A stretch of DNA of 64,000 bases from Patellaria atrata CBS 101060 (taxonomy: Eukaryota): the NCBI GenBank assembly GCA_010093705.1, contig MU006089.1, positions 3,250,061 through 3,314,060 of the forward strand. The letters are read 5' to 3'. The notes beneath the pieces were generated by a model. It was not told the origin of the DNA. It saw only the letters and a list, made by a program, of their open reading frames with translations, and made no database searches. A program made the position numbers and the translations under genes. Below are positions 2,228 through 26,846 of the stretch, piece by piece (position 1 is the first letter of the stretch; every line of letters begins with the position of its first letter).

Positions 2228-5131
2228 ATGCATAGCAACTTTCGCGGGATCATATCCACACTCCTCGCAATACCTCTCGCTCGCTCCACTAGAACTCTAC
2301 CCATCCCAGAATTCCTCGCTCCCCGAATCGTACGCAATGCCCGCAAACGCTATATTTCGACCTCCATCGAGCACCATGTATCGCTATCTCGCGACGTACA
2401 TCAACCCCACGTTAGACCAAAGGTTGAGGATAAAAAGTTCGCAGGGCATCTGCCTCTTCTCTGCGACCGACACGCTCCTGACGCCTGGATAGAGGCTCTG
2501 GAAAAAGTATTACCGGAGCATTTAAGACTATCCACATCAGGGATAACAACAGAGTCTTTCATTTTCGAGGAACCAGTTCAATATGTTTCGTATATTCTCT
2601 CACAAGCCATGACACAGACTCAGATTGACCTATTGACCGTCCTCGGGGTTGAGAAAGGCCGATGGGAAGTTGTGATGTGGATTGTCAGGAGTCTCGTCGA
2701 GAAAAAAGCTTCCACACCTATATTGGAGGAATTCATCAAATCAGCAACATTTCAGTCGCCTGTGGAAGGATCCCTAGATGATATTACTAGGAATCACTGG
2801 GTAGACTTATCTGTTCATTATCCACCTACATCATACGCGTTAGACGAAATGGTAGATTCACCAATACATGACCTATATAAGGGGAAGCACACTCTTGGAC
2901 AAGTCTGGCATAGCCTTGGTAATATGATCATTTGCGCAGCTGAAGAAACATTGGACAATGACGAACTAATCATGCCGCATGTCCTTGAAATTCTTGCATA
3001 CCTCCATCACATGGAGCTCATCTCCGATCAAATTTATAGCGATAATCCAAACCGAGACTTGCTTGCTTTGCGACAACCTCCCGCTTTGCATCTTCTCTCC
3101 TCCCAAATCTTTACCTCTCTTTCTGATGCTGCGTGGAATGCTCACGAAACTGCTGCCCAGAAAGCAAAAAGCTCTCAAGTTGTCCAATACGATTGGATCG
3201 GGCGCGAAATCCCTGGGTCGCGCTATAAAGTCCAAGTGAGTTCGTTGGGTCCGGAAATATGGCTGGAACTAGTGCTTTGGTCCTGTCTATACGGTGGGTG
3301 GATATCCGAAGGAGCCGAGATTATTGCCAAATTGAAACAGTCCTCTGGAGAGAAGAGATGGTCACTAATCTGTTGGCGTGATATGCTTGCTGCAGTGGAA
3401 AATCCTGGTAACCAAATACCCGATAAAGCCTATCGTGATCGGAAATTAGTCGAGAAGACAATCAGCAGTGAAGTTGTAGCTGCATATGTCGATGCGTTAC
3501 TCAATGATATTCGAATTAATGTTGGCGCAAGAGGCATGGCTCCGCAAATTGCGCTCGATCATATTAGGAACTTAAAGCGATTTTTAGACGCTCAGAACAT
3601 GAGTCTTGCCCCAACCTCCTGGGGCGCAGTTGTATCACGGTACCTTGACTGGGAGGGTGTGGTTCTTGAACGAGCCCCATCACTTGCCTCACTAGCGCTC
3701 CGGTTACTCCCAGCCTTTAGGGAAGAGATCGAATCTATTAACGTATCTCCCAATGGCGCCTTAAGTGAGTCCACCAGCTACTATACTTTCGAACCTTCTG
3801 CGGCCCCCCTTGGTCTCCTTAATCGGACGTTGAACGGGTTTGTAGAAAAGGGCGATATAAATGGTCTTCTCACGGGGTTTGACAGGCTCCAGAAGTATAC
3901 GGACGTCAATAAACGAAGATCCTTGGAAGTCCTCTTATCGAGAGCGAGGTCGTCAACTCAGGACGGAAGAGACCTCGTCAAAGGGGTCTTTGACAGCAAC
4001 CTAGATGCGTCGCAGTTCCCTGCGTTCTATCCACAGATCCCGCCCCATATTTTAAGTTCCATTATGGATCTCATCACAAGCTCGAAAGCTTATGAGTTTG
4101 GTAGATGGCTTCTATACTCTACAGATATTGATGGCCCAATCATTCCAGACTCCATGTATAACAATGCCAAAATTGCCAAGTCATTAATCACATTTGCGTT
4201 CGCGTCTGGAGACAAGCAATTATTCGCAAAGATTCTGGATAGACAGAAGTTAACTACCGGCGAGAATAATGAAAAAATATCCAATGAAGTCCTACTTGCC
4301 CTTCTGGAAAGCCAGATCTCTTCACGAGATTGGGGGTCCGTACAGAATCTTCTGAAATACATGGGTCAATCTCCTACAGGCTGGAACGTGACAGCTGCAG
4401 TTCTGTTAGCACGCGAGCTACTGCGACTCGAATCTGAAATTTCACTCAGTGGCAATGAGGAAAAAGAGCAATCCTTCTCCCAAGTGAAGGAATTGTTCCG
4501 TTTCCTGGTACAGAATGGCTATGGCAACGTTGAAAAGGGAGGTCATCTCACGATCACATCGATTCTCGGGTTCTTAGCATGCACCAACAGAGAATGGGCT
4601 ATATTCTCCTCTACACTTCGCTCACGGTCGACTGCACAAGCTGTTAGCATGAGCACTCAACAGTTCAACATTCTACTTGAGGGCGCTGTGCAGAGAGCTG
4701 GTAGTGGAGAGGGTACAAGGCTGGTGAAGATGTGGAGTCGGGATATCATGCCACCGAGTCCAGAGAGTGGCGGTCTGGTCACACTTCCTGCTACTCGTCC
4801 GAAACACCACAATGAAGTAGATTCATTGTCTCCTCTGGAGATCGACGCTTGTATCGAATCGCACGAACCCTTCCTGTTTTACGGACGGGTGGAGACAGAC
4901 CTGAGCACACTACGGATCATTCTAAGCGCTTTCATCAAGGAGAACATAGACGGCATGGAGCAACGTAACGTCGGTAACTATCAGCTTCAAGAAGACTTGA
5001 AGATGTTTAATTGGCTCAGAAAGAAAATGAAAGCATTCGGTCTAACTGCTACAGAAATAGAACATGAGGTGGATGGTATTATCGCTATAGAAGCGAGGAA
5101 AAGTACAGTTTCTCGCAAAGTCGGACCCTAG
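2228..5131 (+). CDS. Uncharacterised 967-aa protein, probably mitochondrial and helical-repeat (PPR-like)
   Basis: Single-exon 967-codon ORF. N-terminus is Arg-rich and nearly acid-free (…NARKRYIST), like a presequence, and the body is leucine-rich and helical. The function is inferred only. Confidence 0.85.
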   Translation: MHSNFRGIISTLLAIPLARSTRTLPIPEFLAPRIVRNARKRYISTSIEHHVSLSRDVHQPHVRPKVEDKKFAGHLPLLCDRHAPDAWIEALEKVLPEHLRLSTSGITTESFIFEEPVQYVSYILSQAMTQTQIDLLTVLGVEKGRWEVVMWIVRSLVEKKASTPILEEFIKSATFQSPVEGSLDDITRNHWVDLSVHYPPTSYALDEMVDSPIHDLYKGKHTLGQVWHSLGNMIICAAEETLDNDELIMPHVLEILAYLHHMELISDQIYSDNPNRDLLALRQPPALHLLSSQIFTSLSDAAWNAHETAAQKAKSSQVVQYDWIGREIPGSRYKVQVSSLGPEIWLELVLWSCLYGGWISEGAEIIAKLKQSSGEKRWSLICWRDMLAAVENPGNQIPDKAYRDRKLVEKTISSEVVAAYVDALLNDIRINVGARGMAPQIALDHIRNLKRFLDAQNMSLAPTSWGAVVSRYLDWEGVVLERAPSLASLALRLLPAFREEIESINVSPNGALSESTSYYTFEPSAAPLGLLNRTLNGFVEKGDINGLLTGFDRLQKYTDVNKRRSLEVLLSRARSSTQDGRDLVKGVFDSNLDASQFPAFYPQIPPHILSSIMDLITSSKAYEFGRWLLYSTDIDGPIIPDSMYNNAKIAKSLITFAFASGDKQLFAKILDRQKLTTGENNEKISNEVLLALLESQISSRDWGSVQNLLKYMGQSPTGWNVTAAVLLARELLRLESEISLSGNEEKEQSFSQVKELFRFLVQNGYGNVEKGGHLTITSILGFLACTNREWAIFSSTLRSRSTAQAVSMSTQQFNILLEGAVQRAGSGEGTRLVKMWSRDIMPPSPESGGLVTLPATRPKHHNEVDSLSPLEIDACIESHEPFLFYGRVETDLSTLRIILSAFIKENIDGMEQRNVGNYQLQEDLKMFNWLRKKMKAFGLTATEIEHEVDGIIAIEARKSTVSRKVGP

Positions 5132-21990: not shown

Positions 21991-24627
21991 AGGATCCAAT
22001 GTTAATGCAGATTGGGGACCGGTGCTCTGTTCCGGGTATGGAAGCTGCATAATCGAACGGGCGCCATGCTCTTTGCAAAGCATGTTAGGGTATGCTAACG
22101 GTCTTTGAAGCAGTTTCATTGGTTGTGGGTGTTGGAGGTGTTTTTCTACCGTGTCCAAAATGAAAGGGCTGTTGTGGGTTCTATCATACTATGCTGGTCA
22201 AACCTTTCTTATGTCGTTCTACCCTTCTATACTATTCCCCCTTCTATATAGGAATTGATAATCGATCGATGATCTTTGCACATCACCCTGTTTTTGATAT
22301 GAATTGTTCTGTTTTAGGCGACCGCTAAACTGTTACAGCTGAGCCGAGCTCGGCTTGATCTGGAGCAACGTCTTCAATAGACAAGTCAAGCCGAGAAAGG
22401 GATACACAGCGGCTCTGTTTCGAAGAATTTTTCACTTGTTTGTCCAGGGGTTTTTTTGAACGGGATTCTGTATATGGATCTTTGTGGGTATCTGGGGTTG
22501 TCCGCGCCAATTGCGCCATGATGGAAAGCCTTCTCTTGACGTCCAGAAGACACGGCAACAGTGCTTACACGCCCCATGTACTTTCCCTTCCTACATGATT
22601 GACCTTATCATTGAAATCTGCGGACTACAACATTAAGGTTCCAGGACCTGTTGGTCTTTCTCTCAGAAGTTCGTACTGAATAGCTGCATATGGGGAAGGG
22701 AATTCGCCGGGAACTATTCAAGCATAGTTCAGCTCAAGCAGCGGCCTACAAGCATACGGAATATCAGCAGACAATCAGAACATTTGAAAGTAATACGCTA
22801 GACCAGCCAGTTGATGTATGTCTCAGAGCTAGAGCAAGGAGAAGAAGAAGACCAGTGCCGCCACGGCTTGCTGGCTCGAGTTGAGGCAGTATGGTAAATG
22901 GTAGAGATTGGTCAACAACCGCAATTGCCACGTTCGCATCGATGAGCCGTTCGTCGATCAAGTATGAAAAGCAGTTCACTTAGGAAACTTGATTCAGTAG
23001 ATATGGGGTAGCTGAGAGTCGAAATTCTCTGCCATATCTGCATCATCCGCGAGTAGCCTGTACTGGACAGTAACAAGGCTAGAACAACTAGATACTGTAC
23101 GTACCCCTCATTATTCCCACTCCCCTCCCCCCCAATTCTCATTCCCATCCGCCAATACCCCAGTCTTCTCCTCCACGATCCGTACCCCTCCCCTAATCAC
23201 TACGCCTCCACAATAACGAAACAGATGAAAGGTGTGGGCGGCTTGCGCGGTCCTGATTGCTTCTCTTACCCCATAATTCTTTTCTCCACAGATAGCAAAT
23301 CGGCTTGCGGTGGCCCCTTGCTAACTGCACCTAGAACCCCATCTACCACGAACACCACGAATACCACGAATACCTCGAGCCAAAATGACGTGCAGGCCAC
23401 TTGTGTCTTGCTCAGCGCAACTTTTGGTCCGTTCCCATGTCACTAATGGACCCAACATATCCTTCTTCCATGTCTCTTGGGAAAAGATGGCGCGTCTGCC
23501 GCACCCTCTGCTAACCGAGACAAGCTTCCAGGTGATCTATCAAGATATGCACACGACCAGCGAGAGAGCATATAGACGCTGCTGAGATTCGACTTCTCCA
23601 AGGTGACATGATGGAATGGGGCCTGAACGATGATCGACTCGCTAGTTCTACGACCAGCCACTTCTCTCAAACTCGGTTTCCATGTTTCTGCATGAGTGTG
23701 CCAGAGAAATCTTTATTCCTCGCATGCAGGGACAGCCGTAGCTTCACACGCTTGATGCGGTGATGCACGGCAATAGCGAAGTTGTTGAGTACGTATAGAT
23801 TGTCTTGAAAATCTCACCAATTACGAGCGCCATCACCTGATTGGGACATACTGTGGCCCATATTGTATGCTTTGACCTTTGCTTGCACCCGTTAGTCTCT
23901 AAACAAACTTCATGTGAAGTCGGGGTGGTTAGCCGCCATACTTCATCAGGCACACCTTTACACACTGTTCCCTCTGTACCGACGACTTTGGACGTCGATC
24001 CTTGCTGGCGTCGATTCAATTTGCCAATGGCATCCTGCATCAACCGTTATAGTCTCCAGTCTCGGATGAACTACCTCTGCCCCGATAATCAATACCTTCG
24101 GCCTTTCCTTATCCTCCCTTCTCACCTACGGCCTAAACACGAATGTAATCATGATTCTGCGTCAAGAGCGCTTCTCGTAGAAAATTGAGCGTCAGGATAG
24201 CATCCCCTTTAAGACTAATCCCGTTCGCCAAGGTAGCAATTCACTTTTCAAACTGACATCAGAATGTACTGGTTCCACATTTCCATATTATAGGCATCTG
24301 CTTGCTCATCAAGTGGCGTTCTTTTATGTATCCTGTAACTAGGTATCTATCTCCTCGAGTGACATTCTCGTTTTCCTATATGATCATGTTGGTCTATTAT
24401 AACTCCCCCTTCTGCAATTCCTCATTTGTCCGTTTCTTTGTCCGCTGTATGTACTCTCCTATTTGGGTCAGAATGTATATGTCCGCAGAGTAACTTGTTG
24501 ACTTGTCTTCACCGTATCATTGGGGTCAGGATTTTGTGTCTTCAAAAGCTTTTGTTTTACTTCTGCTCGTTTCCTTTTTCAAAACCGCCTCCTTTCTGCT
24601 TCTGTATTCACGAAGAACTCCCTGATC

Positions 24628-25974
24628 ATGGCACCACAAGAAAACATCCCTTTGGTAAGTTCACGGTAAAATTTTGTGTACGTATTCCAATCTGACCTTA
24701 GTTCCCATAGTCTGCGAACATTCTTGGAGTAAGCACTCTTAATTCCACTTATCCTAGAATAACTAAGTCCTGATTCCTATATTCAGACGATTGGCACAAG
24801 TACGTTGATCTGCTCATGCTCCCGTCTCTTTTGCTAATAATATCCGCAGTGTACGTTATGAAAACCTCTTTCACTCCCGCGTCGTTGCTAACAGTATCTG
24901 TTTGAAGTTGCTGGTGTGTCCAGGTAAGTGTGGAATAACTGCTAAACGTCGAGGATTTATCTCTAACATCATTTGAAGATCATTCCACAGTAAGCACTAA
25001 ATATCCTCAATTGATCTATGTTTCTAAGAAGATTAGAATATGGTACAACTGGCACCGTAAAGATACCGAAGGCCTCCCCGGAATGATGTTGTTTTTGTGG
25101 GCAGCAGGTGAATCTTTCTACCAAGAGATGAAAAATAGTTATGTCTAATAGAAATCAGGGACCGTACCCCTTGGAGCCTATGCGGTTGTACAAGTGAGAG
25201 GATAGAGATATCTTAAGATAAACAGGTACTGACTTGTCTAGAATTTCAATATACCAATTCAAATCCAACCACAGGTCTTCGGAGCTCTAACAATGATATG
25301 CTGGGCTCAAACATTGATCTATCATAAGTATAAGAGCATCAACTCCTTTTGCACTATATATCATGCTGATGTATATTTCTAGCCGCTGGCGGGTTTGGAC
25401 CGCAAGCCTATTCGTCACAGCAGTAGCGATTCTCTTCGCAGGTGCTGAAGCAATATTGATCTTAACGCTTCGTGTAAGTATAAATGCTTTTACTTGTAAG
25501 TCAGGGTCTAATACATAACAGGGACCGTACTCCAGAGGTATATCTTGGCCAGTGACAATGGTAGGCATTATATCTGCTGTTGTTCTTGCGGCCGGACTCA
25601 TTCCGCCCTACTTTGAACTGTGGAAACGTAGTGGACGGGTAATCGGAATTAATTTCGTCTTTCTGACCATCGACTTTGCGGGTGGCTTCTTCTCCCTCAT
25701 GGCTCTCGTCGCTCAACAAACATTCGACTACCTAGGCGGTGTACAATATATTATCTGCTTGATCCTTGAAATAGGTATCTTTGGTTCCCACTGGATCTGG
25801 CTATACCGTACTCGAACCATACGAAAAGAAGCCAAATCGGTTAGCAAGTCTTACGACGAGTACGTCGGTGAAAAGGAAGGAAAAGTTAAGAATGAATCAC
25901 TAGATGTTGACCTTGAAAAGGGGATGACAGAGAAAAGGCTGAGCATCGAAACCAAGTCAACAAGCTCGGTATAA
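24628..25974 (+). CDS. PQ-loop membrane protein (yeast ILT1/YDR090C-like), 11 exons including a 1-nt exon
   Basis: Exons 24628-24654, 24711-24728, 24787-24799, 24850, 24908-24923, 24979-24989, 25037-25107, 25159-25193, 25242-25327, 25383-25473, 25522-25974. Product MAPQENIPLSANILGTIGTICWCVQIIPQIWYNWHRKDTEGLPGMMLFLW…IQPQ…LIPPYFELWKRSGRVIGINFVFL. Confidence 0.9.
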
Positions 25975-26846
25975 TAATAACGACATATCACTCATCAATA
26001 ATCTTAATAAGAAAGACAATGATAAAGCGGCGCTTTGTCTCACGGCAATGGGTTAATGACGGAGGTTTATTTGATTTTTGGGAACGTCTTACGACGGAGG
26101 AAATCTGATTTTGAACGGACACATTCAACGATGGAGGTATTTGTGCTTCAATTTATCGACATCTGGCGCGTGGGAGGCTTTTTGATCTAAAATTCTCTGT
26201 TCTTTGGGAGGATATTCTTTGCGACTTTTATCTCGTTGGTTTTGGTATGCACTTATGGGCCCGTTAAGACATTTCCTGTACACGCAGTGGAGAAGTGCCG
26301 GTCGAACCCCTGAGAAGATACCCCTAGCTCATACAGCAGGCCAGATAGTCTTTTTCTATGGTAAGCATACAGCTAGCTAGGATATCATGACCCGGGAGAA
26401 AGTTATTGGGGTCTTTCATTGTTGTTCTTCGTGGAATCTTACAGTACATCTTGATTTATGTAGTATTGGGAGAGGTTAGTGGTGCTCTTAATTTCGATAT
26501 GGAGTACACCCGAAAACAATAGTAGGAGGAGTGGAATAGTGCAAGTACAACGTTCTTTTCAATCCATCATGATGATCTTTGCTCGAAATACATAGAAGTT
26601 GGTGGATGAGTCGTCGTGATTGAGGTTGCTTAAGGGTCAAGCCCTTATTGGTCAGATGATCAATGTGGAACATAGCTCTTGGCGTCGCGCTTTGACCATC
26701 AAGTGGGAGACACCAGCTTAAGATCCGTCATCACCTCCGCATCAGTCACAACGTCAATATCAACCTCTGACCTAGTGAATTCCATACCTTTCTGCATCAG
26801 CAGAACCACTTTCTAACTCTCACCCATACATCTTTCGATTTGCACG

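Follow-up and report, generated by a model that had tools for sequence, protein, structure and literature searches.

A probable one-nucleotide exon in the PQ-loop membrane-protein gene of Patellaria atrata, with counterparts in related fungi

The dothideomycete Patellaria atrata CBS 101060 carries a gene for a PQ-loop membrane protein in which one exon, probably a constitutive one, in all probability consists of a single nucleotide. The base concerned is the T at position 24850 of the 64,000-nucleotide stretch of DNA analysed here (the window), and with this base kept the conserved TIGT exon is joined to the CWCVQ exon via one Ile codon. This codon, A-T-T, would be built from three exons: its first base from the end of the 13-nt TIGT exon, its second from the lone T and its third from the start of the 16-nt CWCVQ exon. 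The core of the original prediction, namely the need for a one-nucleotide exon to join conserved exons in frame, is supported by the length of orthologous proteins, by the structure of all 15 interrupted loci (15/15) identified in metagenomes and by the open reading frame of a relative; it is from such relatives that we infer the inclusion of the T in the mRNA of P. atrata.

Joined with T24850, the gene model comprises 11 exons and 10 introns on the plus strand and has an open frame of 273 codons; its exons measure 27, 18, 13, 1, 16, 11, 71, 35, 86, 91 and 453 nt, and all 10 introns are 47–58 nt long. Exon 1 (24628–24654, 27 nt) starts with ATG and encodes MAPQENIPL, which fits the N-terminus of the deposited P. 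atrata protein P0002 and of its orthologues. It is followed by intron 1 (24655–24710, 56 nt, GTAAGT..AG), exon 2 (24711–24728, 18 nt, encoding SANILG) and intron 2 (24729–24786, 58 nt, GTAAGC..TTCAG); in 12 of the 14 distinct sequences compared below, an xxLG exon with a GT donor likewise precedes the TIGT exon by 57–92 nt. Exon 3 (24787–24799, 13 nt, ACGATTGGCACAA) encodes TIGT and supplies the A that opens the Ile codon, and exon 5 (24908–24923, 16 nt, TTGCTGGTGTGTCCAG), beyond the two introns that flank the T, supplies the third base of that codon and encodes CWCVQ. Intron 5 (24924–24978, 55 nt) leads to exon 6 (24979–24989, 11 nt), which encodes IIP and the CA of a Gln codon and thereby the PQ motif, and intron 6 (24990–25036, 47 nt) leads to exon 7 (25037–25107, 71 nt). 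The remainder consists of exon 8 (25159–25193, 35 nt), exon 9 (25242–25327, 86 nt), exon 10 (25383–25473, 91 nt) and exon 11 (25522–25974, 450 nt plus the stop codon), which contains the second PQ-loop half. The 5' end of the gene thus holds a run of five micro-exons (24711–24989; 18, 13, 1, 16 and 11 nt), and in the metagenome locus L076 the first ten exon sizes (27, 18, 13, 1, 16, 11, 71, 35, 86 and 91 nt) are those of the window.

The coding part of the last exon (25522–25971) is 100% identical to the C-terminus of P0002, which is deposited as ‘PQ loop repeat protein [Patellaria atrata CBS 101060]’. P0002 matches the Pfam PQ-loop family (PF04193) with 68 bits in 2 stretches, and the orthologues P0004 and P0006 match it with 71.4 and 66.9 bits, respectively, at a cut-off of 22 bits; the last exon by itself reaches 19 bits, which is under this cut-off. 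In the orthologues the first PQ-loop repeat spans residues 11–69, and the T-exon junction is therefore included in it.

Both introns at the T site are complete. Intron 3 (24800–24849, 50 nt) has a GTACGT donor, a GCTAAT branch motif 12 nt from its 3' end and a CAG acceptor, intron 4 (24851–24907, 57 nt) has a GTACGT donor, a GCTAAC branch motif 16 nt from its 3' end and an AAG acceptor, and exactly one base, exon 4 (24850–24850), lies between them; this layout had been described beforehand for 24800–24907 and matches the letters base for base. Within the interval between the TIGT and CWCVQ exons of the window, AG-N-GT occurs exactly once, and a single merged intron, at 108 nt, would have roughly double the length of the gene's other introns. 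The extra base is required to join two exons whose phases differ by homology. As anticipated, splicing without it shifts the frame, with a stop after 44 codons, and use of the other nearby AG, at 24893–94, also fails, since it leads to a stop. If the T and the 11-nt exon are both omitted, the frame is preserved but the PQ motif is destroyed. Contigs from two DNA runs reproduce 24560–26060 with 0 other letters, 0 gaps and no joints (word depths over this stretch are 326 and 456), so there is no sign of the assembly indel that had been raised as a possible source of error; as the two runs may be the source data of the assembly, this is a check on the assembly rather than independent DNA.

Evidence for the extra residue comes from the orthologous proteins. 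Of 52 orthologues whose N-terminus is intact, 49 have exactly one residue, either Val or Ile, between GTIGT and the [C/F/L]WC motif, and the three orthologues lacking a single residue at the T codon are all predicted proteins; among the orthologues that were obtained from contig open reading frames only (sources lgn or jgi), one residue is present at this codon in 16 of 16. The pattern TxxT-V-CWCVQ-L-IPQ, which the original prediction had given for ILT1-type PQ-loop proteins, is real in these orthologues. Scored against a profile of the 52 orthologues, the model that keeps the T as a one-nucleotide exon reaches 460.9 bits, a model with a GTTGAT donor 454.9 bits, the deposited model 431.5 bits and the model skipping both the T and the 11-nt exon 422.8 bits, and only the T-containing model is colinear with the orthologous proteins.

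The structures of orthologous genes, whose comparison had been proposed as a check, show the same arrangement wherever the T codon is interrupted. Metagenome contigs were scanned with the orthologue alignment, which yielded 410 pattern matches, 147 of them confirmed, and the best 80 of these 147 were classified. In this set of the best 80, TIGT-x-CWC is uninterrupted in 57 loci, interrupted at the T codon by 102–170 nt in 15 and missing together with its region in 8, and one intron alone at the T codon occurs in 0 of the 72 informative loci. All 15 interrupted loci have the structure R/GT..AG/T/GT..AG/N, that is, the exon ends in G or A, and the second AG is followed by the third codon base and TGY TGG. 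There is one AG-N-GT per interrupted interval, with N being T every time, and the upstream and downstream halves measure 47–72 nt and 52–95 nt, respectively. Allowing for near-identical copies (L005/L006 and L079/L080), these loci represent 13 distinct sequences, or 14 with the window.

Across these 14 distinct sequences, the TIGT exon is always a separate 13-nt exon with an AG before it (14/14), and a branch-like motif is located 10–23 nt from the 3' end of the upstream half in 13 and of the downstream half, again, in 13. When the sequences are aligned on the T, positions -2, -1, 0, +1, +2 and +5 are invariant (14/14), the last of these being the G at +5 of the internal donor, position +3 holds A in 12 sequences and G in the other 2, and the flanks vary. 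The sub-introns have a median pairwise identity of 0.56–0.58, so that the internal AG/N/GT is conserved in orthologous genes amid drifting intron sequence. By chance, AG-T-GT[AG]NG should turn up about 0.013 times in 110 nt; all 14 of the distinct orthologous intervals contain it. A conserved acceptor-T-donor inside drifting introns is what a used one-nucleotide exon predicts, and it is predicted by neither of the rival splice models discussed below.

Several further observations concern the introns themselves. Those on either side of the 11-nt exon have disappeared singly in some lineages (L002, L009, L026 and L056; gaps of 15–77 nt vs 109–126 nt elsewhere), and the intron pair around the T is always kept together. 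At 3668–3718, L076 has a GC-AG intron (GCCAGT..CAG) where the window has a GT-AG intron (GTGAGA). The two introns flanking the T in the window, 24800–24849 and 24851–24907, resemble each other more closely than do the members of any other of the 45 intron pairs in the gene, and their similarity lies above that of shuffled sequences (3 of 500 reach the score), as it does in L009 at 3479–3628 (0 of 500). An origin of the pair by duplication was considered and rejected as a general feature, since the likeness is missing in the other 12 distinct sequences; where it is seen, in the window and L009, it could be due to gene conversion between neighbours or to chance.

Transcript-like sequences of relatives also bear on the junction. 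P0006 is an uninterrupted open reading frame of 314 aa from assembled public reads and has Val at the T codon. The genomic contig L076, in which the gene contains 13 introns, encodes 314 aa when spliced with the lone T included, and 305 of the 314 are identical to P0006 in a gap-free alignment. For P0006, uninterrupted and so similar to the 13-intron L076, spliced mRNA from that species or from a sister species is the most plausible source. The 1475-nt contig L012, with an uninterrupted N-terminus and a Didymellaceae-like protein, has the full codon at the nucleotide level; for P0006 and L012 alike, an origin from RNA is suggested by the absence of introns. A blastn comparison among the 80 loci (at least 88% identity) for a genomic and a spliced sequence of one organism returned duplicate genomic contigs only. 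An uninterrupted copy of the gene (278 codons) is also found in L013, at 3629–4465 of a 5074-nt metagenome contig that falls inside a Pleosporales-like clade, the other genomic contigs of which have many introns; this copy may be a transcript contig or a retro-copy.

Against this background, other accounts of the junction have to be weighed, and two of them use in-frame GT-AG introns that the survey of splice options in the original prediction had overlooked. One is the deposited model, which has an intron at 24729–24800, with AG 24799–24800 as the acceptor of intron 2, an exon at 24801–24850 and an intron at 24851–24907. We regard it as very unlikely that this model represents the real mRNA or its major isoform. 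It would take its acceptor AG from the last base of the TIGT exon and the G of the adjoining donor, lose TIGT and gain a hydrophobic insert of 17 residues. All its introns are GT-AG, its frame is open and its product is identical to P0002 residue for residue; the Pfam PQ-loop is still detected (68 bits), and Pfam scores do not tell this model from the orthologues (68 vs 67–71 bits). However, the TIGT exon that it loses is retained in all 14 distinct sequences and in the orthologous proteins, its profile score is 29 bits under that of the one-nucleotide model, and it bypasses the first AG after the branch motif, which is the one with the better pyrimidine tract. Its acceptor also needs A as the last exon base, and this base is G in 10 of the 14 distinct sequences, so that the AG does not exist there. 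The stop-free stretch of 16 codons on which the model relies is not unlikely by chance. The deposited P. atrata protein is in all likelihood wrong at the first PQ-loop helix, an error probably shared by at least 15 of 68 related database entries with the motif (see below).

The other overlooked option pairs a weak GTTGAT donor at 24804 with the 24907 acceptor, making a single intron of 104 nt and replacing the one residue by Ser-Thr. It is GT-AG, in frame and just 6 bits below the best model, and comparable solutions with two or more residues are seen in three deposited orthologues (P0025, P0077 and P0092), but we consider it extremely improbable. Its donor is without the G at +5 that all 14 internal donors have, its intron would be double the length of the remaining nine, and it leaves the invariant internal AG/T/GT and the second branch motif unexplained. 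Almost no weight is given to a third account, under which a one-base displacement to non-canonical splice sites (GT-AA or TA-AG) would yield Ser, or under which the gene is decaying or the assembly contains an indel. A one-base shift would be expected to yield Gly where the last exon base is G, and Gly is indeed found at the T codon in P0039 and P0064, the deposited models of Aaosphaeria arxii and Decorospora gaudefroyi; this Gly may have arisen artefactually when transcripts were fitted to a genome in which a one-nucleotide exon is hidden. The pair of L076 and P0006 speaks against both the donor shift and the one-base shift, in that the former predicts Gly-Lys and the latter Gly for L076, whereas P0006 has Val. 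A decaying gene is at odds with the intact remainder of the gene, and an indel with the two DNA runs, which show 0 differences from the window; a local error is ruled out by the recurrence of the layout in 13 further distinct sequences.

The one-nucleotide exon would also account for errors in other database entries, and the expectation that gene predictors would mis-model this locus has proved correct. P0002 itself corresponds to a model without the TIGT exon in which the first of the T-flanking introns is translated, and footprints of comparable misreadings occur in 15 of 68 database proteins, the set being those with a GTIGT-type motif within the first 140 residues. Frameshifted translation as if the T were skipped is found in 8 of the 68 (e.g. 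from Lojkania, Byssothecium, Ascochyta, Pyrenophora and Sarea), translation continuing from the T into the second intron (GTATG..) in 4, and an extended first donor in 3. In P0050, from Pyrenophora tritici-repentis, 10 of 11 residues match the read-through that is predicted from L079. For P. tritici-repentis, Parastagonospora nodorum, Alternaria and Podospora, the data contain either such footprints or closely related genomic contigs. Judged by these protein sequences, the footprints point to the same layout in the named genomes, and, as listed here, they provide a simple means to find and repair faulty deposited models.

The distribution of the layout was followed in a quick tree of 121 C-terminal columns, which is weakly resolved (29 of 77 forks open). 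Interrupted loci occur in two places of this tree, in a clade with the window and named Dothideomycetes and in a group with Podospora and the sordariomycete Phyllachora. The latter group contains L024, L026 and L056 (SH-aLRT 93), and for these three loci each of the six best named or database matches is either from a Sordariomycetes species or unnamed. Uninterrupted loci cluster with Eurotiomycetes, with Lecanoromycetes and in one deep clade. At least 4 state changes are needed on this weak tree, and two of them concern L012 and L013, which are possibly transcripts rather than genomes. Most likely, to go by this placement, the T-exon layout predates the split between Dothideomycetes and Sordariomycetes. 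The both-or-none pattern of the T-flanking introns fits intron loss via spliced copies, with the pattern comprising only about four changes on a weak tree.

How such an exon might be spliced can be outlined as follows. Short fungal introns are usually recognised one by one, by intron definition, and each of the T-flanking introns is of normal size for the gene and should therefore be recognisable singly. As the acceptor of the first intron overlaps the donor of the second, the two excisions would most likely be consecutive, and whichever intron is removed first would leave an ordinary intron behind. The T site would then resemble a recursive splice site, except that one base is retained. In Drosophila and vertebrates, zero-length exons (ratchet points) are spliced recursively; the introns concerned are very long, and nothing is retained between them. 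The likeness lies in a 3' splice site directly against a 5' splice site and in removal in two steps; the difference is that the P. atrata site would keep one base and lies between introns of about 50 nt. A fused AG/GT, as at a zero-length site, is found in none of the 14 distinct sequences, all of which have the T between AG and GT. The identity of the base is probably fixed because the codon specifies a hydrophobic residue of the first helix, Val or Ile, both with T in the middle. Fungal intron definition may thus be able to hold the smallest possible exon stable over long periods, within a run of five micro-exons.

The original prediction had further suggested that skipping could act as a switch coupled to nonsense-mediated decay (NMD). 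The lone T would then also be a conserved control point: splicing from the outer donor to the outer acceptor would give a frameshifted, NMD-prone transcript, and the ratio between the two pathways would set the level of the transporter. The T-skipped form does contain a premature stop, but we consider a role of this kind unlikely. If it were true, selection would explain why the intron pair has been kept since before the Dothideomycetes/Sordariomycetes split, while neighbouring introns were lost one by one.

One-base exons are already known from Arabidopsis, Fusarium and Coprinopsis, and the PQ-loop case adds a probable, widely conserved example. A literature search on one-nucleotide exons, and on PQ-loop proteins with micro-exon terms, returned no report of a one-nucleotide exon in a PQ-loop gene. 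The statement that such exons are very rare needs softening, in that, as far as the available text of the two reports goes, Coprinopsis cinerea has 13 of them (PMC12230235) and Fusarium CYP621A one (PMC12940212); few are known even so, and the T exon of the PQ-loop gene is an addition supported by comparison across, in our sample, at least two classes of Pezizomycotina. The comparison with stwintrons likewise holds in part. A stwintron has an external intron whose donor, branch point or acceptor is split by an internal one and becomes functional only when the latter has been excised, and the likeness, going by the portions of these papers available to us, consists in abutting U2-type introns, consecutive removal and intron positions one base apart (PMC8469720, PMC6616335, PMC5587772). 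Stwintrons, by the same portions, keep nothing between the introns in the mRNA, whereas in P. atrata both introns are complete and one base would stay. Consecutive splicing is thus a valid parallel, but no splice signal is interrupted at the T site, the signals of both introns are intact and a base remains between them, so the arrangement is not a stwintron.

The Arabidopsis case (Guo and Liu 2015, PMC4674806) is, from what the accessible text describes, also a spliceosomal one-nucleotide exon in a nuclear gene, and differs in that the gene is that of a plant. In C. cinerea, a basidiomycete, long-read annotation gave 13 exons of 1 nt in 13 genes; the available part of this report (PMC12230235) shows that one-nucleotide exons recur in a fungal genome and that the omission of micro-exons breaks gene models, as it does here, without naming the genes or dealing with their conservation between species. 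The nearest counterpart is the one-nucleotide exon of the CYP621A P450 genes of Fusarium, documented with SRA reads of the same species and in 20 orthologues and counted there, in the text to hand, as the second one-nucleotide exon and the first fungal one (Nelson and Syed 2026, PMC12940212). As in P. atrata, a nuclear fungal gene has a single base between AG and GT that provides a conserved codon with its middle base; the interruption is roughly double the usual intron in length, orthologues retain the arrangement and annotation misses it (PMC12940212). The Fusarium base is a G (AGGGT) in a P450 gene of one genus, whereas P. atrata has a T in a PQ-loop gene, within a run of five micro-exons and with the same layout in contigs of at least two Pezizomycotina classes; and while the Fusarium exon is backed by SRA reads of the same species (PMC12940212), the RNA evidence for the P. 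atrata exon comes from relatives only.
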